From the IMG/VR virus record IMGVR_UViG_3300030372_002914, positions 865 through 64,864 of that record: a stretch of 64,000 nucleotides of DNA; one strand, written 5' to 3'. The notes beneath the pieces were generated by a model. That model made no database searches, was not told the DNA's origin, and saw only the letters and a list, made by a program, of their open reading frames with translations. The position numbers and the translations under genes were made by a program. Numbering within the stretch: position 1 is the first letter of the stretch; the number at the start of each line of letters is the position of its first letter. Below are positions 3 through 64,000 of this stretch, in pieces. Origin of the DNA: a virus. Taxonomy: Duplodnaviria; Caudoviricetes.

Positions 3-431
3 CAATGGGTACAGGGTTTTTATGTAGATCAAAACTGGTATGATGTTAGTAGCGGTGATTCTATATTAATTGCTACATCAAATGATGAATTTTACAACTG
101 GCATTTTGGAGATGCTGTAGCAAGGTTTAATGCACAAGAATTAGATAAGCTAGGAATGCAGAAAGAGCTTAGCGCTGTTATAGGTTTAGCTTATTATAAA
201 TATACACCAACATTATGGATACACGCATGGTATAATTGTTTACCTTACCATCGTGGTTTAGATGACTACTCATATGATTATGAAGGTAGTACTATAGAAT
301 GGGATGCTGGTTTAGTATTTGGAACTAAAATAACAAAAAACCTTGGTTTATTCGTGGAAGGAACCCACATGAAGTATTGGGGTAAAAAAATATACGAAGT
401 AAAATTTGGGTTTAACTATTTAATATTTTAA
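3..431 (+). CDS. C-terminal part of a putative outer-membrane beta-barrel protein (5' truncated by window edge)
   Basis: Frame is open from base 3 (QWVQGFYVDQNWYD...) through the listed 156..431 ORF; amphipathic aromatic-rich strands; ends EVKFGFNYLIF, resembling a BAM beta-signal with terminal Phe. Confidence 0.55.
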   Translation, partial: QWVQGFYVDQNWYDVSSGDSILIATSNDEFYNWHFGDAVARFNAQELDKLGMQKELSAVIGLAYYKYTPTLWIHAWYNCLPYHRGLDDYSYDYEGSTIEWDAGLVFGTKITKNLGLFVEGTHMKYWGKKIYEVKFGFNYLIF

Positions 432-434
432 GAT

Positions 435-818
435 ATGGCATTTAAAATGAAAGGTTTTTCTGCTTTTACCAAAAAAACAGATAAAGATTATGAACCACAA
501 ACAAAGGCTGGTGGCCGTGAGTATGAAGATAAGGTAAGAAGATCAGATTTAGACGAAGAAGGGAAAAAGATATTTGACAGTAAGGGATATGAACCACAAA
601 CTCAAACTAGAGGTTATAAAGGTAGTGAACATACTGATTCTACACCTCAAACTGAAATGCAAAAAATGCCTTTATATAGATTAGAGGGAGAATTGGACGG
701 AATTATGGATAATGAATATATGGAGGCTAAAGAGAGGGGTGATAAAAGTGAGATAGCAAGGTATGAATCTCAAATGAATAAACTTAAAAAAGAAATAGAA
801 AGAAGAAAAAATAAATAA
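435..818 (+). CDS. Small charged protein with MAFKMKGFSAFTK leader (putative virion internal/cargo protein)
   Basis: N-terminal 13 aa identical to 822..1091; internal repeat K(D/G)YEPQT twice. Confidence 0.75.
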   Translation: MAFKMKGFSAFTKKTDKDYEPQTKAGGREYEDKVRRSDLDEEGKKIFDSKGYEPQTQTRGYKGSEHTDSTPQTEMQKMPLYRLEGELDGIMDNEYMEAKERGDKSEIARYESQMNKLKKEIERRKNK

Positions 819-821
819 GAT

Positions 822-1091
822 ATGGCATTTAAAATGAAAGGTTTTTCCGCGTTTACAAAAACAAACGGAGATGATAAAAAGAAAATAGCTGAAAATCAAG
901 ATCCAGGGTCTGGTAGAAGTAAGAAGGAAGAGATGGCACATGATATGCGGATGACTAGAAAGGAGATAGCTAGATTTGAGAAAGAGGGTAATAACAAGGC
1001 TATAGGCATGTTAAAAAGCGCTTTAGAAAGACAAAAGAAAGCATATATAGAATTATATGGTAAATTACCAGGTATGGGAACATTTGAATAA
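822..1091 (+). CDS. Small basic protein with MAFKMKGFSAFTK leader
   Basis: 5' nucleotide cassette taagatATGGCATTTAAAATGAAAGGTTTTTC shared with 435..818. Confidence 0.75.
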   Translation: MAFKMKGFSAFTKTNGDDKKKIAENQDPGSGRSKKEEMAHDMRMTRKEIARFEKEGNNKAIGMLKSALERQKKAYIELYGKLPGMGTFE

Positions 1092-1106
1092 ATTAAAACT
1101 AAAACT

Positions 1107-1865
1107 ATGAAAAAATACATTATAATATTATTTGCGCTTATAAGCTCGTTCGCTTATTCGCAATACGACTTTCAACAATTATGCTTAGACTGCGCTGAAC
1201 AAAACGGTTTTTATTGTGGAGATGATCCAGCAAACTGGACGCAATATTCTCCAAATGGATGTGTACCTAATGGTTTTCAAGGTTTATTTTATTTAAATGA
1301 TGGATGGGAAGACTGTGTAGATGGATCTGATGAAGCTGAAGCTGTACCAACAGTAGCAACTGATTGTGCTCCTCCACCACCTCCACCATGTGATACGGTT
1401 TACGTAGACATACCAGTTTATATCTATGAAACTTTATTCCAAACAGATACTATATACCAAACGGAGTATATCACTCAAATACTTTTTGATACTATAGTAG
1501 AAATTGAATATGAAACTATATTTGAAGAAATATTTGTTACAGATACATTGTGGATGGACGGGGCTTTAGATACTATGTACATTGATATTATTGAGTATGT
1601 AGATGTATTTGTTTATGATACAATAGTAGAAACAGAGACTGTTTATATAGAGTTTTTTACTACTGATACTATTGTGGAATATGTAGAGATTATAAATACA
1701 GAATATTTAGATTGTGATACGGGCTTACCTTGTACTTCAAATATACCTGAACTTATAAATAAATATAATAAAAATAGTGTAATCTATAATATTAATGGGC
1801 AGGCAATAAAAGAAAAAGAAGGATTGTACATTGAAGATGGTAAAATCAAATACAAACTAAAGTAA
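1107..1865 (+). CDS. Secreted protein: signal peptide + LDL-receptor class A-like domain + poly-Pro + DT(I/V) repeats + T9SS-type C-terminal sorting domain
   Basis: MKKYIIILFALISSFAYS/Q signal; FYC...CVP...NDGWEDCVDGSDE (LDLa-like); C-terminus TSNIPEL...IYNINGQAI...GLYIEDGKIKYKLK resembles a type A T9SS CTD. Confidence 0.7.
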   Translation: MKKYIIILFALISSFAYSQYDFQQLCLDCAEQNGFYCGDDPANWTQYSPNGCVPNGFQGLFYLNDGWEDCVDGSDEAEAVPTVATDCAPPPPPPCDTVYVDIPVYIYETLFQTDTIYQTEYITQILFDTIVEIEYETIFEEIFVTDTLWMDGALDTMYIDIIEYVDVFVYDTIVETETVYIEFFTTDTIVEYVEIINTEYLDCDTGLPCTSNIPELINKYNKNSVIYNINGQAIKEKEGLYIEDGKIKYKLK

Positions 1866-1866
1866 A

Positions 1867-2211
1867 ATGGCAAAAGAAATTTCAGAAGAAAGTAAGTTTC
1901 AAATTAGTATTAAAACATTAATAACTATAGTAGTTGCTGTTGCGACTGTTATATCTGCTTATTTTGGCTTAATGAGTAGTATTAATTCTAAGTTTGTAGA
2001 ACTTGAGGATAAAGTAGAAGAAGCTTTAGAAAAACCTAAACCAGGTACTGGTACTTATACTATAGATATGGGTGATCCAGCCGCTAGTAATTCTTGGCCA
2101 CCAACCCGTATGGAGTTTAATATGAAAGATCAAATGGCTCGTAATCAAATTGATGCGTTAGTAAAGGAGATAGATGAAATGAAAGAGGAAATAAAAGATT
2201 TAAGAAAATGA
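1867..2211 (+). CDS. Single-pass membrane protein with coiled-coil C-terminus
   Basis: Hydrophobic segment TLITIVVAVATVISAYFGLM; heptad-rich C-terminus. Confidence 0.6.
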   Translation: MAKEISEESKFQISIKTLITIVVAVATVISAYFGLMSSINSKFVELEDKVEEALEKPKPGTGTYTIDMGDPAASNSWPPTRMEFNMKDQMARNQIDALVKEIDEMKEEIKDLRK

Positions 2212-2609
2212 TTAAAAGAATAGACGTATCTAATTACCTTTATATACTAATGATGGTGTTCATGTTCTTATGTGGAACAGCATTTAGTCAAGATTTTGTT
2301 ACTGCTGATAACTTTAAAGATAAAATAGCTAAAGATATAACAATCATTGAATTCTGGGCTGAATGGAATCAAATGAATCAGTTTAATGAATTAATTAAAT
2401 TAAAAGGATGTAATGTATATCGAATCGATATTATGTCTTATATGGACATCCAAATGAATTATAACGTTACAGCTATACCAACTGTAATCATATTTGATAA
2501 TGGCGTTGAAAAAGAAAGATTTAATCCTAATGTAATGTTTAAACTAGACGCTGACAAAAAAACAGTACAACACTCGGTTGATACTATAACACTAAATAAA
2601 TTTCAATAA
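2208..2609 (+). CDS. Exported thioredoxin-fold protein lacking the CxxC motif
   Basis: Hydrophobic N-terminus ending AFS/QD; IIEFWAEWNQMN at the WCxxC position; cis-Pro motif AIPTVIIFDNGVEKERF. Confidence 0.7.
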   Translation: MIKRIDVSNYLYILMMVFMFLCGTAFSQDFVTADNFKDKIAKDITIIEFWAEWNQMNQFNELIKLKGCNVYRIDIMSYMDIQMNYNVTAIPTVIIFDNGVEKERFNPNVMFKLDADKKTVQHSVDTITLNKFQ

Positions 2610-2611
2610 TT

Positions 2612-2980
2612 ATGGCATTTAAAATGAAAGCAAAAGGATTTGGTAATAATCCTTTTAAAAAGAATTTTCCTGATTTAACAGGTGATGGCAAGGTAACTCA
2701 AGCTGATGTATTAAAAGGTAGAGGTGTATTTAAAAAAAATGGAAATGATGATAAGGTAGTTCCTAAATTTGAAAAACCTGAATTTATGTCTGATGACTAT
2801 TTTAAAAGTCTTTCTGATAAATATAAATTACCAGTTAGTGATATAAAAAACAAAATTAAATCTTTAAGCGACACTGGAGGCGGTGGAGAAGAAGATGATT
2901 TTGGGCCAGCTGATGTTAATAGCATTATTAGAGATATGGCTAAAGACAAGTACGAAAGCAACGTAGACGAAATAGATTAA
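2612..2980 (+). CDS. MAFKMK-leader protein with DxxGDG calcium-binding-like loop
   Basis: MAFKMKAKGFGNNPFKK then DLTGDGKVTQADVLKGRGV. Confidence 0.65.
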   Translation: MAFKMKAKGFGNNPFKKNFPDLTGDGKVTQADVLKGRGVFKKNGNDDKVVPKFEKPEFMSDDYFKSLSDKYKLPVSDIKNKIKSLSDTGGGGEEDDFGPADVNSIIRDMAKDKYESNVDEID

Positions 2981-2982
2981 TT

Positions 2983-3309
2983 ATGGCTTATGTACAAAAG
3001 AATAATCCGATACCTATAACCGGGTGTGGTAGACGTAGGGCGGAGCAAATGGCTAATCCATTTAAAAAAATAAGCAAAAGATCTTTATCTAAAGTATCTA
3101 CTCAATTAAAAAAAGCTAGTAAACTACACGCTGATCAAGCTAGTAAAATAGATAAAGCTATAGATAGTCCTTTAAAAAAAGGTATTAGCGGACCTTGTAA
3201 GTCTGCAGCAAAAAGAAAATTTAAAGTATGGCCAAGCGCTTACGCTTCTGGATGGGGCGTAAGGTGTACTAAAGCTGGTGGCCCAAGTAAATACGGAGGT
3301 AGTAAGTAA
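2983..3309 (+). CDS. Small basic protein of short modules (KRKFKVWPSAYASG module)
   Basis: MAYVQKNNP leader; NPFKK and SPLKK separators; Cys-flanked basic module of a type I recall from marine phages. Confidence 0.65.
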   Translation: MAYVQKNNPIPITGCGRRRAEQMANPFKKISKRSLSKVSTQLKKASKLHADQASKIDKAIDSPLKKGISGPCKSAAKRKFKVWPSAYASGWGVRCTKAGGPSKYGGSK

Positions 3310-4175
3310 TGTTTAAGGGTTTTAATATAGATAGATTTAAAAGAATGAAACCACCTTCTGACAACTCGTTTAATACGATGCAGGAGGTAAAGCAGCTTAA
3401 TAGTATACCTATGAATAAGTCTTCTGTTCAAAAGTACGATAACATAGAAAAAACCTTTGCTGATATAGCTGCTAAAAATAATATAACTAACTACGACTCT
3501 AAACTAGTAGGTGATTTAATTAAAAAATCAGCACCAATAATAACTAAGTTAAAAAAGCATTTTAATAGACCTAGACCTAAAGTAATGGCTAAAAAATTAG
3601 GTATACGTATGGCAGACTATGAAATGAACTCTATGAAAACACCATCATATCCTAGTGGTCATTCAACTCAAGGCGTTTTAATAGGTAAAGTATTAGCAGA
3701 TAAATACCCTAAAGCAGCCAAACAATTTATTAAGGCTGGTAAAAACATTTCTGATAGTAGAAGAATAGCTAAAGCTCACTACAAATCTGATAGTAAAATG
3801 GGTGAAATGCTAGGTAACGAAATGTACAAACATGCAAAAGCCTCACCATTGAAATGTTGGAAAGGTTACGAAAGAGTACCTGGTACAGCTAAAGGCTCTA
3901 AAGGTAGTTGCCGTAAGTCTTCGCCAATGAAAAAACAAAAAGGTGGTGGTACAACTAAAACTTGTTTACCTGCAGCTAAGATACGTGGCATGAGTAAAGA
4001 AAAAAGGCAAGAGCTAGTTAGCTCTAAAAAGGCAGCTGGTGCACAGGGTAAATATAAAAGATCATCTAAAACAAACGTTAAAGGCGCTAGAAAAAAAGGT
4101 GCTACGTTAAGAGACTGGTTTCAAAAAGAAGACTGGAGAAGAGTAGATGATCCTTCTAAAAAATGTGGAGAATAA
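3309..4175 (+). CDS. Soluble PAP2/acid-phosphatase-superfamily domain fused to basic peptide modules
   Basis: All three PAP2 motifs: KxxxxxxRP (KKHFNRPRP), PSGH (SYPSGHS), SRxxxxxHxxxD (SRRIAKAHYKSD); no TM helices; C-terminal CWKGY and LRDWFQKEDW modules after SPLK and SPMKK. Confidence 0.75.
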   Translation: MFKGFNIDRFKRMKPPSDNSFNTMQEVKQLNSIPMNKSSVQKYDNIEKTFADIAAKNNITNYDSKLVGDLIKKSAPIITKLKKHFNRPRPKVMAKKLGIRMADYEMNSMKTPSYPSGHSTQGVLIGKVLADKYPKAAKQFIKAGKNISDSRRIAKAHYKSDSKMGEMLGNEMYKHAKASPLKCWKGYERVPGTAKGSKGSCRKSSPMKKQKGGGTTKTCLPAAKIRGMSKEKRQELVSSKKAAGAQGKYKRSSKTNVKGARKKGATLRDWFQKEDWRRVDDPSKKCGE

Positions 4176-4489
4176 TGGCATATATACAATCAAATAATCC
4201 TTTTAAAAAATCAGCGGAACCAAGACGTACTATAGGTCCTGGTAAAAATTTTAATAAAGCTAGACCAACTGGAACTGGTGCTGCAGCTGGTGGAGGTATG
4301 ACTCAAAAAGGCGTTGATGAATATAAACGTAAAAATCCAGGAAGTAAATTGCAGACCGCTGTTACTACTAAGCCATCTGAATTAAAACCAGGTAGTAAAA
4401 AAGCTAATCGTAGAAAATCATTCTGCGCTAGATCAAGAAGTTGGAAAAGCGAAAGAGGTAAAGCTGCTAGAAGAAGATGGAACTGTTAA
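4175..4489 (+). CDS. Small Arg/Lys-rich protein (NPGSKLQTAVT...RRKSFCAR...RWNC family)
   Basis: ATG at 4175 overlaps the previous stop; MAYIQSNNPFKK leader; highly basic module. Confidence 0.7.
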   Translation: MAYIQSNNPFKKSAEPRRTIGPGKNFNKARPTGTGAAAGGGMTQKGVDEYKRKNPGSKLQTAVTTKPSELKPGSKKANRRKSFCARSRSWKSERGKAARRRWNC

Positions 4490-4520
4490 AAAAAAAGGGA
4501 GCAATTAAGCTCCCTTTATT
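4488..4520. terminator. Intrinsic terminator between the convergent arms (probably bidirectional)
   Basis: Hairpin AAAGGGAGC-aattaa-GCTCCCTTT (4494-4517); the A9 tract on + gives a U-tract for the minus-strand transcript; TTTATT follows on +. Confidence 0.8.
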
Positions 4521-18952: not shown

Positions 18953-19114
18953 TTAGTCATTTTTACTTGGATCATAATAGTATTCTATTATATATGTTTC
19001 ACCGGTTTCTATATCATAATTGTATTCTATTCTGTAAGGTTCTTCCTCAACCGTTAATCGCTGGCTAGCGCAAGAGCACATTAGTATGCATAAAATTGTT
19101 ATTAATTTCTTCAT
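18953..19114 (-). CDS. Small lipoprotein
   Basis: MKKLITILCILMCSC-ASQ signal peptidase II-type leader; start reassigned to 19114. Confidence 0.6.
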   Translation of the reverse strand: MKKLITILCILMCSCASQRLTVEEEPYRIEYNYDIETGETYIIEYYYDPSKND

Positions 19115-19124
19115 ATTATTTAAT

Positions 19125-19397
19125 TTAGTGGTTAGTAATTCCATTAGCTTCTGCTAAATTATGCAAGAATATATCAAATTCTGCTGTTTCTTTAGCTATT
19201 TTTTCATTTAATAGTTCACCACACTTCTCATATTCTTCGGTATTTTCAAAGTATTCTATTACTTCGTCAATATCTTCATTAGTATAATCAAATGGATCAC
19301 CATAAAACATTGCTTTTTTATTTTTACTTAAAATCTCATCTACAGTAGATTTTAAAGTCATCACTCTATACGAGTTGTTCATGCACTTATCTATCAT
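19125..19397 (-). CDS. Hypothetical protein with UVR-like YFE..EEYEKC motif
   Basis: IEYFENTEEYEKCGELL. Confidence 0.65.
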   Translation of the reverse strand: MIDKCMNNSYRVMTLKSTVDEILSKNKKAMFYGDPFDYTNEDIDEVIEYFENTEEYEKCGELLNEKIAKETAEFDIFLHNLAEANGITNH

Positions 19398-22510: not shown

Positions 22511-24076
22511 ATGGAATACAACTTACCAAGCGAATTGGTTAAGAACTTAGACTTCGGTGGTGAAGCTAAAGATAGAGTTATCACCGGAGTTAATAAGTTA
22601 GCCCAAGCTGTTAAATCAACATTAGGCGCATCAGGTAAATGCGTTATTTACGAAGATGGCAGAGGCAAGCCGGTCATTACAAAAGATGGAGTAACCGTTG
22701 CAGAAAGCGTAGTCTTATATGACCCGGTCGAAAACATGGGCGCGACCTTAATCAAAGAAGCTGCTAGAAATACAGTAAAAGATGCTGGTGATGGCACAAC
22801 AACTGCTACAGTACTAGCTGAAGCAATAATCAAGCAAGTAGACACTGCGATCGCAGATGGTCTTACAATCAGAGAAATTAAAGATGGAGTAACAGAAACA
22901 CTAGATAGTGTCATTGGCTATTTAAATGATATAGCTATTGATGTAGAAGGTGATATGCTTAAATCTGTTAGTGCTATATCTTGTAACAACGATAAAGAGC
23001 TAGGAGCTATTATAGCTGAAGCTTACGATAAAGTTGGTAAAAATGGTGTAGTACTTATGGAAGAAAGCGAATCTGAAGATACATATGTTGACGTAGTTGA
23101 TGGTGTTAAAGTTGATTGTAACTTAACATCACCGCATTTTGTCACCAATACTGAAAAACAAACATGTGAATTAGACAAACCACTAGTTTTTATATGTTCA
23201 TCTGAAATACCTAATGTTCGTAAGATTCAGTCAATATTAGAATATGTTATTAAAAATAACAGAGCTTTATTAATTGTAGCACCAGTAGCACAACAAGTTA
23301 AAGCCGCTTTACTAATGAATAAAGTAAAAGGCACTATAAAGGTTAACGTTATTGATTTACCAGGCTTTGGTCCTACTAAAAAAGATGCCACTGAAGATCT
23401 AGCTATACTTACTGGAGCTACTGTTCTAAATGAAGAACTTGGTGATGATTTAGATCTTATGAAACCAGAACATTTAGGTGAAGCTGAGTTTGCTATAACT
23501 GATGATAAAAATACTGTACTAACTCTAGAAGGTATGACTGAAGGTATCGAAGATAGAATAGATGAGTTAAACAAACATTTAACCGAGGAATCAAACGGTT
23601 TTATTAAAAAGAAACTTGAAGATAGATTAGCTATGTTATCAGGTAGTGTAGGTATAATACGTGTTGGCGCTAATTCTAAAGTTGAACTAAAAGAAAAGAA
23701 AGATAGAGTTGAAGATGCTATATATGCAACTAAAGCCGCATTACAAGAAGGTATAGTACCAGGTGGTGGTATTGCATTACTAAATGCATCTCAAAAAATT
23801 TCGACCAGCAAGGCTGGTGAAGTATTACTTAATGCTTTATCTTCTCCATTTGAAGTAATTATGGACAATGCTGGATTAATGATGAATCCTAGTAATCTAA
23901 AAGAAGGTTATGGTTGTAACGTAATAGATGGAACGTTTCCTAATATGGTACGTGAAGGAATTATAGATCCTGTACTTGTAACTAAGTCTGCACTTAAAAA
24001 TGCTGTAAGTGTAGCATTAACTATTATGTCAGCAGATTGTGTAATCTCAAATATAAGAGTAAATGAAGGCGGTTAA
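22511..24076 (+). CDS. groEL: Phage chaperonin GroEL (Cpn60)
   Basis: [49 protein letters not shown]; lacks the GGM tail. Confidence 0.97.
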
Positions 24077-24856: not shown

Positions 24857-25297
24857 TTGAGATTAACTAGTCACGATTTACGTGATTTACAAATCCTTAA
24901 GTATTACAGGCTCGTTCGTAAATGGGCCTGTAAAACTTACGGGTTAACAGACGCTGATTTAGAACTTCTTATTTATTTAGATTGTAAAGGAAGATTTACG
25001 CGTCAAGAATTTATCGACGGAACATATACCATGAGTTGGGATAAGAACCGTTGGGAGAAATTAAGGAGGAATGGTTGGATAGAAACGTGGAGACACAGAA
25101 ACAGAACAACCATCAAATACTCAGTATTCAAAACCTCCTTTAAGTGTACACACTTAATTAGTAGAATATATCGAATACTTTTAGGGGAAGAAGATATACC
25201 TACTTCGGAAAGAAGTGTGTTTTTTACTAACCAATCATATACCGATAAGGTCATGAATAAGTCTATCGATGATATGATAAAAGATAATGAAAGATGA
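24857..25297 (+). CDS. Winged-helix (MarR-like) DNA-binding protein
   Basis: GLTDADLELLIYLD...FTRQEF...WEKLRRNGWI; TTG start. Confidence 0.55.
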   Translation: MRLTSHDLRDLQILKYYRLVRKWACKTYGLTDADLELLIYLDCKGRFTRQEFIDGTYTMSWDKNRWEKLRRNGWIETWRHRNRTTIKYSVFKTSFKCTHLISRIYRILLGEEDIPTSERSVFFTNQSYTDKVMNKSIDDMIKDNER

Positions 25298-25722
25298 TAA
25301 AAAATTTAGTAGGTGGCTTATTCGGTAAAGTAGTAGAAAATGCAGAAGGAATACTTGATAAAGTTATTACAACAGACAAAGAGCGAGATGAAGCCAAACT
25401 CGCGCTTAAAAGATTATTACTCGAAGCCGAAGCTGAAGCTTTCGCGAAAGAAGTCGAAGACAGAAAGAGCGCTAGAGATATGTATAAAGACGATGCGCTT
25501 ATTCAAAAGATACTTGCCTCACTCTTCACGATAGCATATTTTGCTTTAAGTTTCGTAATGTTTAGATTCTTCATGATGGGTGATATAGACCTAGGAGAAT
25601 TTGAAATAAGCTTTATATCAACAATATTCGGCGCTATGAGTGCTAAAGTAAATACGGTTGTCGATTTCTTTTTCGGCGGATCGTCTAAGAAAAATGAACA
25701 ACAACAAATAAATAATAAATAA
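25294..25722 (+). CDS. Holin (GTA holin-3TM-like family)
   Basis: G...DK..TTDKER...EVEDRKSAR, two or more TM segments, V..FFFGGS. Confidence 0.7.
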   Translation: MIKNLVGGLFGKVVENAEGILDKVITTDKERDEAKLALKRLLLEAEAEAFAKEVEDRKSARDMYKDDALIQKILASLFTIAYFALSFVMFRFFMMGDIDLGEFEISFISTIFGAMSAKVNTVVDFFFGGSSKKNEQQQINNK

Positions 25723-35202: not shown

Positions 35203-36054
35203 ATGGCAAAGAAAAAAGTAATAACTAAGGTTGAAGAACCTATAGTTGAAGAAACAGTTGCTGTTGAAGAACAGCCGGTTGTAAAAGAACAACCTAAGGT
35301 TGAAGCTCCTAAAATAAAAGCTAAACAAAAAGACGATTGGGAAATAAAAGAAAGAGTTTATTATTTAAAAGGAAGAAATAAACCATTATCCCACTCTATA
35401 AGAACGTCAAATTTATTTTGGTTTGATGAAAAAAAAGGTTATGAAAGAGAAATAAAGTATTGCCAAAATCAAACAACTTGTTTTGTTGACGAGATGAAAG
35501 GTGTTCAAAGATTAGAGCATATTGTTTTTAGAAGTGGGAGTCTATATGTTCCTAAAGAAAAAGTAACTTTGCAAAAATTTTTATCATTATATCATCCTCA
35601 CAATGGAAAAATATTTTATGAACATAAGCCTGTTGAAATAGCTAAAAATGAAATTGAAATACTAGAAATGGAGGCTGATGCTATATTAATGGCTAGACAA
35701 ATGGATATTGATTTAGCTGAAGCTATTATGAGAGTTGAAAAAGGATCTGAAGTATCTATGATGAGTTCTAAAGAGGTAAAAAGAGATTTATTATTATTTG
35801 CTAGAAGAAATCCAAATTTATTTTTAGAATTAGCTAATGATGATAATGTTCAACTTAGAAACTTTGGTATCAAAGCTGTTGAAGAAGGAATATTAAAGCT
35901 GTCAAGCGACCAAAGGTATTTTACTTGGGGTTCAAATAATAGAAAAATAATGACAGTTCCTTTTGATGAGCATCCATATACAGCCTTAGCGCATTGGTTT
36001 AAAACTGATGAAGGTATGGAAATATACTCAAACATAGAAAAAAGATTTAATTAA
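35203..36054 (+). CDS. Protein downstream of the capsid gene (head assembly associated, function unknown)
   Basis: Position after MCP; N-terminal E/K/P-rich tail. Confidence 0.6.
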   Translation: MAKKKVITKVEEPIVEETVAVEEQPVVKEQPKVEAPKIKAKQKDDWEIKERVYYLKGRNKPLSHSIRTSNLFWFDEKKGYEREIKYCQNQTTCFVDEMKGVQRLEHIVFRSGSLYVPKEKVTLQKFLSLYHPHNGKIFYEHKPVEIAKNEIEILEMEADAILMARQMDIDLAEAIMRVEKGSEVSMMSSKEVKRDLLLFARRNPNLFLELANDDNVQLRNFGIKAVEEGILKLSSDQRYFTWGSNNRKIMTVPFDEHPYTALAHWFKTDEGMEIYSNIEKRFN

Positions 36055-37813: not shown

Positions 37814-40800
37814 ATGCCGGAAATTAAAAGAACATTTACAGCCGGTAAGATGAACAAAGATCTCGATGAGAGATTAGTTCGTAACGGCGAATATAGAGAC
37901 GCTTTAAACATACAAGTTAGAACCACTAGTGGAGAAGACGGCATTGGTGATGCTGGTGTAGTTCAAAACATTAAAGGTAATAGTTATAAAGGTGTTGCAC
38001 ATATAACTAAGACCTATACGCTTCCCAATGAAGATGATGTTTTATTATACACTAAATTCGTAGGTAGCGTTGCTGATGAAAAAAATGATAAGGCTTATTT
38101 TTTCGCGGCATCACCTTTACCAGAAGGTGGATTTGATTCTATAACGCATACATATATAATGGGTGTATATTCTGGGAATCCAGATTTTTGGAATTCAGGT
38201 GATGGATTAAGACATTGGATAGATAGTATAATTGAATTAGACGCTACAACAGAAACTAGTACACCTATTTTTGTTGATAAATACGGAGTTACTGGTAGAT
38301 TGCATGATGTAATAGGTGCGGACAATGTAACCGCTACATCTATAGGTTTAGAATTAAAAGTATTAGACGGATCGCTGTATAGAATCGGCATGATTGCTTA
38401 TTTCTATAACAATGACGGTGAACATTTATTTGTTAATTCTCAAGGCAATGGGGTTAAAATAATAGATATACAAGAAAATAAATTAATTTTAGAATCAGAG
38501 CAAGACTTAAATTTACAAACTGAATTAACTAACGGCAACATAGATTATAGAAGTGCGTTTAAATTTATATATCCAGAAAGGGTTTTAGAATTTGATTATA
38601 ACTCTTTGATACCAAACATTAATATAATAGACAATCTGTTATTTTATACAGATGGTAAAAATGAGCCAAAAAAAATAAATATTGACAGATCTAAAGCTGG
38701 TACTATTTTTTCATTAATAGAAAGCTATATAGACCCTGACTCACAAGAAGATACTATAATAGAATTTCCAAATATCCAAACAGCTGAATCTTACCTTGAA
38801 AGACCTAAACACACAAAGTTATTTGTTAATAATACTATTATAGATGCTGATCAAGAACTTGTAGAAGTAAAAGAATTAGAATGGGACGTAAAAACATCTG
38901 ATATAAAAAGAGAGCATATTACAGTTATAAGAAAAGCTCCTTTATCACCACCAACATTAGAAATTAGTAACACAGATAGAGAAGGGAGTGTTAGTTTTCC
39001 TTTATCTTATTCTGGTTTTATACAAAATGGAGAACCTATATTTGGGGAAACTAGAGTTATACAAGCTAATATTCTTTTGAATCAAGATGTTAGATTAAAT
39101 GATGTATTAAGATTTACTAGCGATGAAAATAATAATAATCCAGTCACAATTGTAACTAGGGTAATTGGTATTAACGGGCCTAACGCTATAGAAGTTCAAT
39201 TAACTTTCATTGACCCTGATTTAATATCTCAAGAACCATCATTATGGAACGTAGAGGTAGAGCAAGAAAAACCTTTATTTGAAACTAAATTCGGTAGAAT
39301 AGGTTATAGGTATCAATATGAAGACAATGAATATTCTACTTTTTCTCCTTGGTCTGAATTAGCTTTTTTACCAGGGGGTTTTTCATATACACCTAGCAAA
39401 GGCTATAATGAAGGTATGTCTAATAACACTAGAAAACTAGTAATTAGAGATTTTATACCAGATAATTCTATAAGACCTATTGATGTTAAGAAAATTGATA
39501 TACTTTGGAAAACAACAGATGACCAAAATGTATATGTTATAAAAAGTATAACTAGAGGTAGAGATGTAGAGTGGGATGTTCTTGGCCAAGAAACTAAAGG
39601 TGAGCTAACTATGACATCAGAAATGATACATAGAGTGTTATCTAATGAACAATTATTAAGATCTTGGGATAATGTACCTAAAACAGCTTCAACTCAAGAG
39701 ATAACAGGTAGTAGACTTGTTTTTGGTAATTACACACAAGGATATGATATAAATAAAGTAGTAAATTTAGAACAATCATTATTATCAGATACTGTAATTC
39801 CTCTTGAGCCTAAAAAATCTATTAAATCTATTAGGAATTATAAATTTGGAATGGTATTTGGGGATAGATATGGTAGAGAAACGCCAGTGTTAGCAAGAGG
39901 TTATAATATAGGTGTTAATTCTGGCGTAACTGGAGATACTAGTATTGATAAAAGTTTAGCTAGTTTTTCTAATAAATTTAGAGTAAAACAAAATTGGGAG
40001 ACAGAACCAGAGGATTGGATGGAGTACGTAAAGTATTACGTAAAAGAAACTTCTAATGAGTATTATAATTTAGTAATGGACAGATGGTATATTGCTGACG
40101 ATGATAACTCAACAATATGGATGTCTTTTCCATCTGTCGATAGAAATAAAGTTGATGAAGAAACTTATTTGTTGTTAAAAAATGAACATGGATCACAAAA
40201 CGCTGTCGTAGACAGGGCTAGATATAAAATATTAGCAATAGAAAGTGAGGCTCCAGATTTTATTAAAACTGATTATAGAAAATTTGAAAAAGTTTTAATA
40301 GACCCTGAGAATGTTTTTAGTGACACAGATACATCAAGTGGTATTCCAGATAAATTAATTGGGAGTAAAACAATAAGGACAGACACTACTAACTGGGAGC
40401 TCGCTGAAGGTGGCTTGACTCCTGAAATACAAGCTGATCAGTTTAAAGGTACTATTAAAGTAAGAATAGTTGGAGAAGTTGCTGATAACCCAAGTGTAAC
40501 TTTACACACTCGTTGGATAACTGTTGCTAGAGTAAAAAGCGGACCAGGTAATGATAGAGGTTGTGATATGAAAGAAGAGTTCACTACTGAGGAAGCTAAC
40601 ATGTACATAAGGTTAGGTAACATATTTACAATTGACGCTGCGGCAAACGTAGCAGTAAATTATTATATGGAATTTATGGATGAGGTTGTAGAAAATAAAC
40701 CAGAATTTGACGGTAGATTTTTTGTAAAAATAGAAAAAGATCCAATACTAACTGAATACGTAGCGTCTTCTACTTCTGGTACTCAATGGCAACCGGAAAT

Positions 40801-43800
40801 GAGCACTAAAGTAGGTTATATAACCAACAAACCTGAAAATGACGCTTTTATATTACAAACTGGAATGGATGGTTTTCCAAGCGGATTTAATATTGCAAAT
40901 TATACTGAAGATTCAATTGACAATTATTATAGCGCTGTCCAAGCTGTTAACCTTGCTGGAGGAAATAATGATTGGGGTCTTACTGAAACTGGTTCTGGTG
41001 TGGTACCATCTTTTATTTGGGACGGTGGCATTAATGGTAATAGTAGAACTCAAGATTTTTGGAACTGGCACAATACACAAGTTTCAGAAGGAAATGCCCC
41101 TAAAATATTTATTGATGCTATACCTGCTTTCCGTGGGTGGAATAAAGTAGAGTCAGTATCGCTTGGAATTGGTTTTGGTGGAGTTGAAAATGATATACTC
41201 GTAGATCTCCCAAGCCGCTTTGATTCTAGAAATCCTTACGTAGCAGAACATCCAGACTACGAAGTTGACGCTCCTGGTAATTATGATCCGGGAGATCCTC
41301 CTAGATTACCAGTAAGTTTATGGTTTAACGACCAGTTTTATGCAGGAGAAGATTGGATAAATGGGTTTAGTTATATTGGTTCGAACTCTTACGTTTATGG
41401 CGGTGTTCCTTATGGACCGGGAAACAACCCGGAGCAACAAACAAAAAACTATTTACCGCCTGGGTTCTCACAAGGCTCAGGTAGTTCAGGTACTTACAAT
41501 CAATTTTGTTTTTCTGTAGTTGGGGAGACAAGTGGTTTTGGTACCGCCACTAGTAACGAACAAGAGTTCAAATCAAGAATGCAAAGTGTTGGTCAATGTT
41601 TTAGATTTCAAGAGGATGCAGATCAAACTGTTTACAAGATAATAGCAAATACACAACTTGTTAACCCAAATGCACCGGAAAATCAAGCTGCTATATTTAA
41701 TGGAGAAATATCTATAGATAGTATAAATTATCACACAGATAATTATCCCGATGATTTAGTTGCTAAAAGACACTCAATAGTTGTTAGATTTGTGAGATTA
41801 GATACTTTTGGTGGAGAAATGTATGATAATGGCTCGCCAGTTGGTATAGATTATAGTGAGTTTGATCCTAGAGGTTATGTTGGAAGTGATGGTATAGGTA
41901 ATTTTACAATAGAGTTTGTAACGGAATTAAATGAAAGTGAATTAATCGAAGACTCTATAAGAACTGATAAAGCTTGTTGGGAAACCGAACCTAAAAAAGA
42001 CATGGATATAGATATATACTATGAGGCTAGCGGGGCTATACCAATGAACTTAAAAGAAAATAACATACAAATTTATGCTCAACCTTCTAATTCCTTATTA
42101 TTAGAAAAAGCTAAATTAGCTAGTACAGTAGATATTCTTTCTAGAAAGATTGGTCCAGATCAAACTGTAGAAGTAAATATAAATAGTGGTTTAGATTATG
42201 GTTTTAGTAGTATATTTGCTTACGTGTGTAAAACTATAGGTAATAGAGGTATTATGATAGCGCATAATAATGATAATGCGTTCGCTGCTAATAATTTGAT
42301 TACTTTTCCAAGTATTAATGATGTAAATGAAATATATACAAGAAATTACCCAGCTATAGATGACTTTATAACATTCACACATCCAAATGGTTTAATAACT
42401 AGATCAAAAATAATAGATCATTTAGCGGTTAACTCGATAGCTCCTTTTGATAAAACAAACAATATAAGTCCATCATATAGAGACACAATTGATAGTGGTG
42501 CGACATTTAACGTCATAAACGATGGGCAACCTAGAGGTTATTTCTTTGCTCAAACTCCATCACCGCTTCAAGTTGGAATGGAATTAAGGGGAACTTTTGT
42601 TAAACCTGGGAGTTTTATATGTTTTCAAGTTGATTTTGGGTCATTTGGAACGCTTTTTGCTATTAATCAACATTTTAAAGAAGAAGTTGAGGGAATAGCA
42701 TACAACGAAGAATCATTAGTTTTAACAGGTATAGAAACAACAGGTTTTTTTGAAATAGATCCTGAGGTATGGAAGTATGAAGTTGATTTAAACTGGTTTA
42801 ATTGTTATTCATTTGGTAATGGTGTGGAATCAGATAGAATAAGAGATGATTTTAACGCGCCAACTATTGATAATGGTATAAAAGCTTCATCTACGTTTTT
42901 AGATTATAAAGAAGAAACTATAGGTAGTGGATTAATACACTCTTCTGAGCTATATAACGCTATATCTAGTGTTAATGGTTTAAATGAGTTCAGTATGGGA
43001 CAAAAAATAACTAAAAATTTAAATCCAATTTATGGCTCTATACAGGCTTTAAAAACAAGAGACACAAACTTGGTTACCTTCTGTGAAGATAAAGTTTTAA
43101 AAGTATTAGCAAATAAAGACGCTGTATTTAATGCTGATGGTAATCCACAATTAACAGCTACAAATAGAGTTCTTGGGCAAACAATACCATTCGCCGGGGA
43201 TTATGGTATATCTAAAAATCCAGAATCATTAGCTGTTGATCAATATAGAATGTATTTTACAGATAAACAAAGAGGTGCTGTATTAAGATTATCTGGAGAT
43301 GGTTTAACACCTATATCCAATGTTGGCATGAAAACATATTTTAGAGAAAATTTACGAGACTGTAGTTCTATAGTAGGTACTTTTGATGCTGAAAACGGTG
43401 AATACAATGCTACTCTTAATTTTAATGAGGAATCTCAAAAAAATTCTACAACTGTAAGTTTTAATGAAGGGGGTAAAGCTTGGGTTAGTTTTAAATCTTT
43501 TCTACCTAATTGTGGTGTTTCTGTAAGTGGTAAATATTTTACAACACCTACTATAGAACAGTCTTTAAATGCTCAAAACTATATAGCCGCGAGTAGTAAA
43601 ATTTGGCTGCATAATGCTAATGAAACGAGAAATAATTTTTATACAATTGATGAATTTAAATCAACTATAGAAGTCATATTTAATGATATGCCTAGTGTAG
43701 TAAAATCTTTTAAAGCTGTAAACTACGAAGGTACACAGAGTAGAGTTTTAGAAAACACAAGTACGTCGTATGGTGGTGATGGGGAATATTATAATATAGA

Positions 43801-44845
43801 AGGAAAAAATGGTTGGTATGTAAATGCGTTTAATACAAATACTCAATCTGGTAAAGTAAAAGAGTTTTTAGAAAAAGAAGGTAAATGGTTTAATTTTATA
43901 ACGGGTACCGTTGACACATCTGGTGATATAAGCGATTATGTAAATTCTAGTGAGTTTAGTGTACAGGGAATAGGTTTTCCACTATTAATAGGTGAAGGAT
44001 TTGAACAATCGCAGGCTATATTAGAAATAGAAGTACCCCAACCTACTATTGATCCTGTAACAAATGAAGCTGACGAAAACACTGCTGAAATTGAACTTGT
44101 TGAAAATACGGTTAATTATCAAATGCCTCAAGACGATGGTAGTACTATTCCTATGTGGGACTGGGATAGTTATAATATAACAGGAGGCAATTGGAGTGGA
44201 TTTGGTGATCTTTATCCTGAATTAGCTGAAATTTACAACTCTCAGTCTTTAAGATATTATCATGGAATTACAATTGAATTTATTTATAATGGTATAGCAC
44301 CGTTTACAGATGAAGATGGTTTAGAATATTTATATGTTACTATTATGAAAAATGGAGCCGCTTTACCAACATTCGAATTTCTTGACACAACTACGTATGC
44401 TGAATCAGGTTTTAATAATCTAGAATTGAGGGCTTATAGAGTTGAAGGAAGTAATATTTATGAATATGAATTTAAAAATGCTATGAATTCTAGCATGTTT
44501 TCTAATGCGGCAGGTTCAGGCGCTTTTGAAACCAGTGTATTTATTGGTGACACATTCCAATTGATAGTTGAGGATACAAGCAGCAACAAAGGGACAAAAA
44601 CTATAACTTTAACTGGTGATTATATTAACCCTGACCCGGCAGATGTGCCATTAGTAGATTGGAAACCTGGATTTCATGATGGAGATGGTCAAATTACTAC
44701 AGAAGGTACAATAGGTACAGGTGAAAACGATATAAACGATTCATACACTGGACCTTTAGGTGTACAAGTGAACTTAGATTGGAAATTTGGGCCAAATGGA
44801 GATCAAGAAATTACAGATCAAGAACCAACTGATATACTAGATTAA
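37814..44845 (+). CDS. Tail nozzle/muzzle (stabilisation) protein, enlarged by insertions
   Basis: F..GKMNKDLDERL..NGEYRDALN start; NGVESDRIRDDFNAP...; beta-propeller-type C-terminal part GDYGISKNPES...FTDK.RGAVLRLS.DGLTPIS. Confidence 0.75.
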   Translation: MPEIKRTFTAGKMNKDLDERLVRNGEYRDALNIQVRTTSGEDGIGDAGVVQNIKGNSYKGVAHITKTYTLPNEDDVLLYTKFVGSVADEKNDKAYFFAASPLPEGGFDSITHTYIMGVYSGNPDFWNSGDGLRHWIDSIIELDATTETSTPIFVDKYGVTGRLHDVIGADNVTATSIGLELKVLDGSLYRIGMIAYFYNNDGEHLFVNSQGNGVKIIDIQENKLILESEQDLNLQTELTNGNIDYRSAFKFIYPERVLEFDYNSLIPNINIIDNLLFYTDGKNEPKKINIDRSKAGTIFSLIESYIDPDSQEDTIIEFPNIQTAESYLERPKHTKLFVNNTIIDADQELVEVKELEWDVKTSDIKREHITVIRKAPLSPPTLEISNTDREGSVSFPLSYSGFIQNGEPIFGETRVIQANILLNQDVRLNDVLRFTSDENNNNPVTIVTRVIGINGPNAIEVQLTFIDPDLISQEPSLWNVEVEQEKPLFETKFGRIGYRYQYEDNEYSTFSPWSELAFLPGGFSYTPSKGYNEGMSNNTRKLVIRDFIPDNSIRPIDVKKIDILWKTTDDQNVYVIKSITRGRDVEWDVLGQETKGELTMTSEMIHRVLSNEQLLRSWDNVPKTASTQEITGSRLVFGNYTQGYDINKVVNLEQSLLSDTVIPLEPKKSIKSIRNYKFGMVFGDRYGRETPVLARGYNIGVNSGVTGDTSIDKSLASFSNKFRVKQNWETEPEDWMEYVKYYVKETSNEYYNLVMDRWYIADDDNSTIWMSFPSVDRNKVDEETYLLLKNEHGSQNAVVDRARYKILAIESEAPDFIKTDYRKFEKVLIDPENVFSDTDTSSGIPDKLIGSKTIRTDTTNWELAEGGLTPEIQADQFKGTIKVRIVGEVADNPSVTLHTRWITVARVKSGPGNDRGCDMKEEFTTEEANMYIRLGNIFTIDAAANVAVNYYMEFMDEVVENKPEFDGRFFVKIEKDPILTEYVASSTSGTQWQPEMSTKVGYITNKPENDAFILQTGMDGFPSGFNIANYTEDSIDNYYSAVQAVNLAGGNNDWGLTETGSGVVPSFIWDGGINGNSRTQDFWNWHNTQVSEGNAPKIFIDAIPAFRGWNKVESVSLGIGFGGVENDILVDLPSRFDSRNPYVAEHPDYEVDAPGNYDPGDPPRLPVSLWFNDQFYAGEDWINGFSYIGSNSYVYGGVPYGPGNNPEQQTKNYLPPGFSQGSGSSGTYNQFCFSVVGETSGFGTATSNEQEFKSRMQSVGQCFRFQEDADQTVYKIIANTQLVNPNAPENQAAIFNGEISIDSINYHTDNYPDDLVAKRHSIVVRFVRLDTFGGEMYDNGSPVGIDYSEFDPRGYVGSDGIGNFTIEFVTELNESELIEDSIRTDKACWETEPKKDMDIDIYYEASGAIPMNLKENNIQIYAQPSNSLLLEKAKLASTVDILSRKIGPDQTVEVNINSGLDYGFSSIFAYVCKTIGNRGIMIAHNNDNAFAANNLITFPSINDVNEIYTRNYPAIDDFITFTHPNGLITRSKIIDHLAVNSIAPFDKTNNISPSYRDTIDSGATFNVINDGQPRGYFFAQTPSPLQVGMELRGTFVKPGSFICFQVDFGSFGTLFAINQHFKEEVEGIAYNEESLVLTGIETTGFFEIDPEVWKYEVDLNWFNCYSFGNGVESDRIRDDFNAPTIDNGIKASSTFLDYKEETIGSGLIHSSELYNAISSVNGLNEFSMGQKITKNLNPIYGSIQALKTRDTNLVTFCEDKVLKVLANKDAVFNADGNPQLTATNRVLGQTIPFAGDYGISKNPESLAVDQYRMYFTDKQRGAVLRLSGDGLTPISNVGMKTYFRENLRDCSSIVGTFDAENGEYNATLNFNEESQKNSTTVSFNEGGKAWVSFKSFLPNCGVSVSGKYFTTPTIEQSLNAQNYIAASSKIWLHNANETRNNFYTIDEFKSTIEVIFNDMPSVVKSFKAVNYEGTQSRVLENTSTSYGGDGEYYNIEGKNGWYVNAFNTNTQSGKVKEFLEKEGKWFNFITGTVDTSGDISDYVNSSEFSVQGIGFPLLIGEGFEQSQAILEIEVPQPTIDPVTNEADENTAEIELVENTVNYQMPQDDGSTIPMWDWDSYNITGGNWSGFGDLYPELAEIYNSQSLRYYHGITIEFIYNGIAPFTDEDGLEYLYVTIMKNGAALPTFEFLDTTTYAESGFNNLELRAYRVEGSNIYEYEFKNAMNSSMFSNAAGSGAFETSVFIGDTFQLIVEDTSSNKGTKTITLTGDYINPDPADVPLVDWKPGFHDGDGQITTEGTIGTGENDINDSYTGPLGVQVNLDWKFGPNGDQEITDQEPTDILD

Positions 44846-63649: not shown

Positions 63650-64000
63650 ATGAATTTAGAAGTAATTAGATTTTCTAGTGGTACTGATAGTACTAACGGA
63701 ATGCTGTTAGAAGCAATAGAACAAGGTAACGATATAGATGGGATGTTCTTTCAAAAAAAATTTTTAGCATATACATTAGAAGATGAAAAAAGAGATACAA
63801 AAGTTCTTGGAGAAACGAGAATCCCAGACGGTAATTATAAACTGGGTCTTAGAAAAGTTGGAGGATATCACGCAAGGTACACGAAAAGATTTCCTCACAT
63901 ACATATTGGTATGTTGCATGTTCTTGATGTTCCTGGCTTTGAGTATATACTTATCCATTGTGGAAACACCGATGAGCATACAGCAGGTTGTTTGTTGGTA
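63650..64000 (+). CDS. DUF5675-like (L,D-transpeptidase-fold) protein, candidate endolysin; 3' truncated
   Basis: T.G.L...F..YTLED...ETRIP.G.Y...L.DVPGFEYILIHCGNT.EHTAGCLLV (IHxGN...GC motif). Confidence 0.75.
   Translation, partial: MNLEVIRFSSGTDSTNGMLLEAIEQGNDIDGMFFQKKFLAYTLEDEKRDTKVLGETRIPDGNYKLGLRKVGGYHARYTKRFPHIHIGMLHVLDVPGFEYILIHCGNTDEHTAGCLLV

Follow-up and report, generated by a model that had tools for sequence, protein, structure and literature searches.

The 64,000 bases analysed here (the window) are part of the 64,864 bases of the IMG/VR virus record IMGVR_UViG_3300030372_002914. They carry a cassette of four genes for proteins predicted to be exported or placed in the envelope: an outer-membrane β-barrel, a variable acidic repeat protein (p252), an inner-membrane coiled-coil protein (p114) and a thioredoxin-fold protein (p133). 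Barrel, coiled coil and thioredoxin form the invariant core of the cassette, and the fourth gene is variable. With a probability of roughly 0.4, this trio is a spanin-like outer-membrane lysis device to which p252 would be an accessory surface partner. The reading starts from the folds and architectures of the parts, their restriction to phage DNA, their conserved gene order and their linkage to lysis genes; that the proteins physically join, the topology of the resulting complex and its part in lysis are what we infer from architecture and gene neighbourhood. In the following lines and throughout the text, a slash marks the predicted cut of a leader.

3-431, plus strand: predicted outer-membrane barrel, the C-terminal 142 residues of a 351-residue protein; the full gene lies at 240-1295 of the record (G000/L001), its first 624 nucleotides preceding the window.
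1107-1865, plus strand: p252, the variable "cargo" of the cassette, with a signal peptide following the Q-rule, acidic repeats and a short tail (1441 homologues).
1867-2211, plus strand: p114, a predicted type II inner-membrane protein, i-spanin-like by transmembrane (TM) scan and family alignment.
2208-2609, plus strand: p133, a predicted exported thioredoxin-fold protein without CXXC (PF00085, 32.4 bits at a cut-off of 23.5; leader AFS/Q).

The first-pass annotation had taken these four reading frames, all of which are found on the plus strand at the positions given, for a cluster of envelope-targeted proteins extending from the inner membrane to the cell surface. Folds, leaders and the TM segment bear out a cluster of exported and envelope proteins, and the TM segment of p114 and the fold of the barrel would place the parts so as to reach from the inner to the outer membrane. 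Signal peptides were judged by rule and by family alignment only. Barrel, p252 and p133 all have leaders in which a Gln follows the predicted cut, which is the Q-rule of Bacteroidota noted also for other Bacteroidota phages (PMC10367356).

The full-length barrel protein was modelled by AlphaFold2 from an alignment of 30 sequences (predicted local distance difference test, pLDDT, 76.8; predicted template modelling score, pTM, 0.71). The best VIA-align matches of the model, covering residues ~26-351, are the 12-stranded barrels KdgM (Z 14.1), the EstA autotransporter/translocator (Z 13.7) and NanC (Z 13.7), followed by NalP (12.7), LpxR (11.2), FapF (11.0) and OMPLA (10.8), whereas a FadL homologue of the 14-stranded FadL/PorV type scores 8.0 against the 14.1 of the 12-stranded top match. 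Foldseek assigns a probability of 1.00 to porins, FapF and autotransporters and returns 142 matches at E ≤ 1e-3, the top ones among the matches listed being outer-membrane barrels. Judged by this model, the protein would be a closed, antiparallel transmembrane β-barrel of about 12 strands, with a helix-rich insertion of ~80 residues (residues ~179-261) lying outside the barrel strands.

The sequence of the barrel ends in ...KFGFNYLIF, and the C-terminus of the family reads G(F/I)NY(L/Q)(I/F)F. Together with the leader, which is ...CCA/Q in this phage and VNG/Q or similar in homologues, the aromatic C-terminal strand, read from the sequence as a β-signal, makes the protein a predicted substrate of Sec and of the β-barrel assembly machinery (BAM). 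Both the barrel and the C-terminal β-signal that had been expected on first inspection were thus recovered. Neither the barrel nor any of 29 relatives matches a Pfam or NCBIfam model. At E ≤ 10 the genome has no match to the Phage_OMP/cyanophage outer-membrane-protein-like family PF24653, which came up only as a language-model look-alike (score 0.93), and none to PorP/SprF (PF11751). The polar residues E108, R73/K74, R117, R131, R159, R176, H178, S266, H283, E328 and N347 are near-invariant in the family.

The leader of the barrel, MKKILLLLVVLLISCATPKKCCA/Q, combines a lipobox-like LISC with the Q-rule site. Such a leader for signal peptidase I (SPI), ...LLISCATPKKCCA/Q with two extra Cys, is confined to a subgroup of the barrels (L001 240-320, L017-L022 and L042); most relatives have a plain SPI leader. 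In some lineages (L004, L009, L037-L041) a separate Pro-rich lipoprotein of 59-63 residues is encoded between barrel and cargo. A homologue with 40% identity on a short metagenome contig (L097 112-1200) gives the database protein only if TGA is read as Trp, suggesting that the carrier phage or its host has a recoded stop.

The second part of the core, p114, had been described beforehand as a single-pass coiled-coil protein, and a single TM segment (residues 18-36) together with heptads is what is seen. The TM segment is preceded by a conserved, predicted cytoplasmic tail of 15 residues and followed by a first helix, a linker with Pro and, at the C-terminus, a heptad coiled coil, a plan that is kept in the family alignment. 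The heptads, read from the sequence, cover residues 39-54 and 95-112, with the a/d series I95-L98-I102-M105-I109-L112. Family searches return weak coiled-coil matches and phrog_20984 (function unknown). An N-terminal TM anchor and periplasmic coiled coils characterize i-spanins, to which p114 corresponds in architecture only: the published plan comprises TM domain, first coiled coil, linker and second coiled coil, and T4 PseT.3 has 117 residues (PMC6139136) compared with 114 in p114.

The start codon of p133 overlaps the stop codon of p114 (ATGA). In addition to passing PF00085, p133 matches 37 thioredoxins of the PDB at E ≤ 0.01, and in these alignments its FWAEW-NQMN lies opposite FWAPWCGPC, with a gap across the CXXC, while the cis-Pro loop is kept. 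The CXXC is also lost in the homologues from loci L004, L011 and L014. Since the CXXC is lost but the fold and the cis-Pro loop are retained, a binding or chaperone role is suggested. The exported Cys-less thioredoxin fold of the earlier description is retained, the export being predicted from the Q-rule leader.

Relatives of the barrel number 663 in the protein collection (247 clusters at 50% identity) and occur on 377 IMG/VR viral contigs; those of the coiled coil occur on more than 460. Gene order was compared in 74 loci with enough flanking sequence (clade 1) and in 41 loci located via the coiled-coil alignment (clade 2), the barrels of the latter being ~31-35% identical to the barrel of this phage. 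In clade 1, 72 of the 74 loci have a p252-type gene at most three genes after the barrel, and coiled coil and thioredoxin are present in 66, where they are invariably adjacent (66/66). The thioredoxin gene of clade 2 directly follows the coiled-coil gene in 38 of 41 loci, and barrel, coiled coil and thioredoxin are contiguous in 27. As the trio is constant across both clades and its neighbour varies, the trio is the core. An L004-type phage of 80-90 kb, whose large terminase (TerL) is only 21% identical to that of this phage, has the same genes in the same order, with identities of 64% (DUF5675 protein), 74% (barrel), 56% (cargo), 87% (coiled coil) and 67% (thioredoxin). Co-conservation of the genes, proposed initially as a check of the module, is strong across unrelated phage backbones, and on sequence grounds the cassette appears to be a horizontally mobile, phage-specific element of marine Flavobacteriia phages.

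Searches with the region, with both barrel clades and with p114 plus p133 (megablast, blastn and tblastn) found nothing in 50,697 GenBank phage records. Scanning 185,579 species genomes for the barrel yielded three loci, all on phage-like contigs of metagenome-assembled genomes, and the barrel profile found two carriers among 401 Flavobacteriales genomes, at least one of them a phage-like contig. From this phage-only distribution it follows that the barrel is neither a recently captured host porin nor a member of the common PorP/SprF family; a copy of a host porin in the manner of an auxiliary metabolic gene was ruled out, as only 2 of the 401 Flavobacteriales genomes contain the family. Two contigs of a metagenome-assembled genome named 'Candidatus Woesearchaeota' (L015, PBPJ01000041.1; L016, PBPJ01000028.1) contain the barrel, one of them also the coiled coil, near proteins of ~2450 residues; they are almost certainly misbinned phage DNA. 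No publication describing the cassette was found.

The ends of the record overlap by 99 bp, and the phage genome is therefore a complete circle of 64,765 bp. Across its junction lies the gene that precedes the barrel, while the holin candidate of the genome is found elsewhere:

63650-64000, plus strand: N-terminal 117 of the 163 residues of a DUF5675 protein, a candidate endolysin (C82/YkuD-like); the gene crosses the junction of the circle, with its end at G000 240.
25294-25722, plus strand: holin candidate of 142 residues (phrog_3427, E 1.5e-4, and PF11351, E 0.008, both weak) with a TM segment at residues 70-88.

The two halves of the DUF5675 protein match PF18925 with E-values of 8.5e-21 and 2.6e-13, and in a lysin screen DUF5675 clustered structurally with C82 peptidases (bioRxiv 10.64898/2026.04.11.717860). 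The TAA stop of its gene overlaps the ATG of the barrel (TAATG), and the cassette appears to be translationally coupled to this candidate endolysin gene and to be expressed late.

At least four peptidoglycan hydrolase families (DUF5675, M15_3, amidase and SLT) are found beside the cassette. In the L004/L009 type the DUF5675 gene is located two small genes upstream. The L011 type has the order barrel, cargo, coiled coil, thioredoxin, M15_3, holin (phrog_3427, 9.5e-30), and in L014 a holin-like gene and a gene for a protein with a C-terminal sorting domain (CTD) precede barrel, coiled coil and thioredoxin, which are followed by an amidase with a peptidoglycan-binding domain, an enzyme type that adjoins the cassette in L178 as well. 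A barrel with 31% identity has an SLT protein two genes away. Within clade 1, 63 of the 74 loci contain, at a distance of no more than 6 kb, a gene recognised as lysin or holin-like, and in 24 a holin-like gene for 70-95 residues with two TM segments lies between barrel and thioredoxin. The other 11 loci have an unannotated, virus-only gene for 200-202 residues in the endolysin slot, which elsewhere replaces M15 next to the holin; its copies (L025 5391-5999, L089 8181-8789 and L047 11827-12435) are located before the barrel or between thioredoxin and holin. The protein has no match in Pfam, the PDB sequences or the ESM Atlas and is, by position only, a candidate for an undescribed lysin family. 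In related GroEL-encoding phages the cassette is located with M15 and holin between GroEL and TerL (L011-type order). Comparison of the gene orders suggests that in the present phage it moved together with a different lysin, whereas the weak holin candidate stayed.

Conventional spanin genes are missing from this setting. The Rz family (PF03245) has no match in the genome, the coding strands of the genome contain no small lipobox lipoprotein reading frame, and the gene after p114, the position relevant for an o-spanin, encodes a thioredoxin fold whose leader is of the SPI/Q-rule kind and lacks a lipobox. Superinfection exclusion, surface remodelling and lysis control had all been suggested for the module in the first-pass annotation; of these, the link to lysis is favoured by the overlap with the lysin gene, the four endolysin families and the holin-like genes in 24 of 74 loci, and exclusion and surface remodelling remain as rivals.

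In the proposed spanin-like device, barrel, p114 and p133 would bridge the periplasm. From the inner membrane the coiled coil of p114 would extend upwards, and p133, by its thioredoxin fold, would serve as adaptor or chaperone to the barrel or to its non-barrel insertion of ~80 residues. After firing of the holin and cleavage of the peptidoglycan by the DUF5675 peptidase, the bridge would destabilise or fuse the outer membrane. p252 would be a variable secreted partner of the barrel, probably ending on or in the outer membrane or at the cell surface. To go further and regard the trio as a third outer-membrane lysis machinery after spanins and disruptin-type peptides, one specific to Bacteroidota phages with a BAM-inserted barrel as core and a variable fourth subunit delivered to the surface, often by the secretion system of type IX (T9SS), is tentative and must be called rather unlikely.

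Several observations weigh against a lytic device. The functional case is built wholly on gene neighbourhood, and lysis cassettes are landing sites for unrelated accessory genes, lambda bor beside Rz/Rz1 being an example. Neither a barrel nor a thioredoxin nor a secreted acidic protein is known to be needed by spanins, which leaves two of the four parts without an assigned role. The holin candidate of this phage lies ~25 kb from the cassette, in the interval between GroEL and TerL; the closest sequenced relative (MW202828.1) lacks the whole cassette; and no cultured GenBank phage carries the barrel. Pairwise-identity ("mirror-tree") correlation was considered as a sign of interaction and rejected, since it is significant for every pair including the flanking DUF5675 protein and is no higher among the parts than with the latter; it thus reflects common descent and gives no sign of specific co-evolution. 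Finally, T9SS-tagged neighbours recur in the sister clade and point to surface display.

According to this last explanation, which is the main rival and which we consider possible but unlikely, the infected cell is decorated with a secreted adhesin-like protein, which would be p252 in this phage and large MAM/TSP3-like T9SS-tagged proteins in the sisters; the barrel would be its dedicated anchor or shuttle in the outer membrane, comparable to the PorP/SprF-like barrels that serve type B T9SS cargo, and thioredoxin and coiled coil would be periplasmic chaperone and tether. The benefit would be the masking of receptors against superinfection, for which T5 Llp and lambda Lom are the models, or progeny being kept from sticking to debris.

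The leader of p252, MKKYIIILFALISSFAYS/Q, shows the n-h-c plan and ends in AYS/Q in accordance with the Q-rule; it is kept in 14 homologues and predicted to be of Sec type. The protein contains nine Cys, a CDTGLPC motif and an acidic motif resembling the Ca site of LDLa modules (NDGWEDCVDGSDE). The LDL-receptor class A module itself gives no Pfam match in p252, the six-Cys pattern is absent and Asn stands in place of the Cys that precedes DG. The repeats extend over ~107 residues, consist almost exclusively of T, I, E, D, V, Y and F and contain DT every 9-18 residues (DT(I/V)-rich), and the mature protein has a net charge of -37. The chain ends in a short conserved tail of 28 residues, IYNINGQAIKEKEGLYIEDGKIKYKLK. 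Across loci p252-type proteins comprise 191-310 residues, depending on the number of repeats, and microdiversity is high, with many single-member clusters at 90%. An AlphaFold2 model from 14 homologues is uninformative (pLDDT 39), so that no fold can be assigned to the cargo. Chelation of Ca/Mg by the acidic p252 was considered as a role and set aside because sea water holds millimolar divalent cations.

p252 had been announced as a signal-peptide protein with a T9SS CTD. The leader fits the Q-rule by rule and alignment, but no model detects a CTD: TIGR04183, TIGR04131 and PF18962 have no match in p252 at E ≤ 1, the TIGR04183-class check having been proposed at the outset, and none at E ≤ 10 when the genome is searched in six frames. 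An hhalign comparison of p252 with the genuine phage CTD of L014 gives a probability of 0.3%, and with a hidden Markov model built from 11 phage CTDs the p252-type tails score no better than shuffles. The last ~28 residues of p252 bear only motif-level likeness to a CTD. With all CTD tests, for type A and type B, negative or equal to shuffles, the label of T9SS cargo was dropped for this copy.

The sister cassettes differ in this respect. A large, Cys-rich, secreted Q-rule protein of 600-1150 residues adjoins the trio in 27 of the 41 clade-2 loci. Four of seven such proteins compared with Pfam (L014, L145, L164 and L142) pass the Por_Secre_tail cut-off, that of L014 also passing TIGR04183 of NCBIfam, and another has a MAM domain (4.7e-21) and a ~35-residue tail that resembles both the p252 tail and the last CTD strands, a likeness statistically inseparable from shuffled controls. 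The idea of T9SS cargo is therefore borne out for the sister cassettes, as judged from these profile matches, and is not supported for p252. Surface display is backed by a single report of T9SS cargo encoded by phages, that on 'Cryophage' (PMC7468147), and by work in which receptor blocking by phage outer-membrane proteins was proposed and demonstrated (bioRxiv 10.64898/2026.10.24.761521). The position of a cargo gene close after the barrel in 72 of 74 loci, the adjoining length-variable tail-fibre-like genes (p811/p149) and the high microdiversity of p252 are likewise in favour of surface display. On the other hand, p252 lacks a detectable CTD of either type, the barrel is no PorP/SprF protein and is nearer to 12-stranded barrels (Z 14.1) than to the FadL/PorV type (Z 8.0), and the cargo gene does not keep a fixed place with respect to the trio. 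Moreover, one protein is normally enough for receptor masking, which calls for no set with an inner-membrane coiled coil and its conserved cytoplasmic tail, and with late expression and no integrase found in the genome, exclusion has little time to matter.

In a further explanation, coiled coil and thioredoxin would control when lysis occurs, as an antiholin or a periplasmic sensor comparable to T4 T/RI, with barrel and cargo relaying a signal from the outer surface such as superinfection. The topology of p114 would suit a class III holin or a holin partner, its cytoplasmic N-tail is strongly conserved, a soluble protein of the periplasm always accompanies it, and a two-TM holin-like gene is often found directly upstream (L019, L021, L084, L087, L091 and L093). 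Nevertheless, neither sequence nor family links p114 to known holins or antiholins, known lysis-inhibition systems need no outer-membrane barrel and the acidic repeat protein would be left without a role, so that this explanation is improbable. Equally poor are the prospects of a barrel that is active alone, as a lipid hydrolase like OMPLA or LpxR by which the outer membrane is weakened or as a porin or exporter passing the cargo in the manner of FapF or autotransporters: the fold matches (LpxR 11.2, OMPLA 10.8, FapF 11.0, autotransporter 13.7), the near-invariant polar residues and an extremely acidic cargo that would suit a basic pore speak for it, but 12-stranded barrels all score alike and the matches are therefore uninformative on activity, an HxS-type catalytic motif is absent from the sequence, and coiled coil and thioredoxin remain unexplained.

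Compared with known systems, the lysis device proposed here is closest in plan to the two-component spanins (lambda Rz/Rz1, T4 PseT.3/PseT.2 and T7 gp18.5/18.7). Both are encoded by late genes in or beside the lysis cassette, and both combine a type II inner-membrane subunit with split coiled coils and an outer-membrane partner, and could span the periplasm. In spanins, however, this partner is a lipoprotein of ~60 residues instead of a 351-residue BAM-type barrel with a predicted lytic role. Furthermore, two additional exported proteins travel with the barrel, there is no sequence relation to spanins (PF03245 being absent), no o-spanin gene is embedded or overlapping, and p114 has no cysteines for disulfide links.

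The 'Cryophage' cargo (Bellas et al. 2020, PMC7468147) consists of T9SS type A enzymes encoded in flexible islands of Bacteroidota phages. It resembles the cassette in the use of host export signals, sister cassettes carrying PF18962/TIGR04183 CTD proteins beside the trio, and differs in that no barrel, coiled-coil or thioredoxin partners have been described, while p252 has no detectable CTD. PorP/SprF-type B pairs also place the gene of an outer-membrane barrel beside that of a secreted repeat protein; yet PF11751 and TIGR04131 have no match here, and the cassette barrel resides in phage DNA, with two carriers in 401 Flavobacteriales genomes. With other phage outer-membrane proteins (lambda Lom/Bor, those of huge phages, bioRxiv 10.64898/2026.10.24.761521, and PF24653) the cassette barrel shares its predicted destination in the outer membrane of the host. 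It differs from them as an unannotated family with ~12 strands and an insertion of ~80 residues, unmatched by PF24653, that occurs in apparently virulent phages of ~30-90 kb as part of a fixed, endolysin-linked set of genes. Finally, the b/b′ domains of PDI and CnoX-type chaperones, like p133, retain the thioredoxin fold and the cis-Pro loop and have lost the CXXC, whereas p133 is small, stand-alone and predicted to be exported by Sec, with a gene that is always translationally coupled to that of an inner-membrane coiled coil.

The genome consists of a minus-strand replication block and a single long plus-strand late block, at the 3′ end of which the cassette follows a 3789-residue protein and two tail-fibre-like genes. 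Its virion proteins, GroEL and large terminase are those of the Cellulophaga phi38:1/Flavobacterium 'elemo' podovirus group, the nearest record being MW202828.1 (TerL identity 64.5%), and integrase models have no match. In MW202828.1 (L002) the region 35390-36013 of the minus strand encodes, next to an M15 peptidase, a 207-residue protein that has a TM helix at the N-terminus, DT(I/V)-type repeats with eight DT dipeptides and a β-rich C-terminus ending in YWKLRLK. It could be a single-chain counterpart; its hhalign comparison with p252 (probability 5.8% over 19 columns) is not significant. Other noticeable genes in the window are those of GroEL (22511-24076; phrog_5725, E 3.6e-132), of two giant late proteins of 2343 and 3789 residues (37814-44845 and 48937-60306) and a minus-strand early reading frame of 63 codons (18953-19144) with a hydrophobic leader (..KKLITILCILMCSC..), a Tyr/Glu-rich body and no canonical lipobox, which may encode a small exported protein. 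The transcription unit that holds the cassette contains the following further features:

435-818, plus strand: p127, a hydrophilic protein with the N-terminus MAFKMKGFSAFTK, encoded by an inserted gene outside the conserved cassette.
822-1091, plus strand: p89, a paralogue of p127 sharing the MAFKMKGFSAFTK N-terminal motif, likewise an inserted gene.
2612-4489, plus strand: p122, p108a, p288 and p108b, co-transcribed and not exported, which recur near the cassette.
4494-4517, no strand assigned: bidirectional terminator-like hairpin with a 9-bp stem, ending the plus-strand late unit.

The genes of p127 and p89, both hydrophilic proteins that the first-pass annotation does not mention, lie between barrel and p252 and are not conserved there; p127 is missing from this position in most related loci, is 78% identical to p89 over the first 18 residues and, like p89, has no family match. 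p122 starts with MAFKMK, p108a is DUF5872-like and p108b belongs to DUF6321. p288 is a soluble protein resembling PAP2/PhoC acid phosphatases (motifs KX6RP, PSGH and SRX5HX3D) with a very basic tail and neither TM segment nor signal peptide. The set of DUF5872-like, phosphatase-like and DUF6321 genes (2983-4489) recurs, differently ordered, on many related contigs. The N-terminus MAFKMKG(F)SAFTK is common to otherwise dissimilar hydrophilic proteins (435-818, 822-1091, 2612-2980 and L031 5363-5971), and MAY(V/I)Q..NNP..PFKK is common to p108a and p108b. A shared start of this kind on proteins with unrelated bodies could serve in targeting or processing, for example as a signal for capsid packaging.

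To our knowledge, how Bacteroidota phages pass the outer membrane at lysis is essentially unknown. Among phages of Gram-negative hosts in general, ~13% have no recognisable spanin (91/677, PMC6139136; see also 10.1101/515445). The cassette is abundant in ocean viral DNA and restricted to phage DNA, and three of its four parts fall outside the described families. If it provides the missing lysis step, it would represent a new mechanism and supply marker genes with which lysis cassettes could be annotated in Bacteroidota phages of the sea and possibly of the gut. If instead it serves in surface display, virulent phages would use BAM and, in some variants, T9SS in order to rebuild the surface of their host late in infection.

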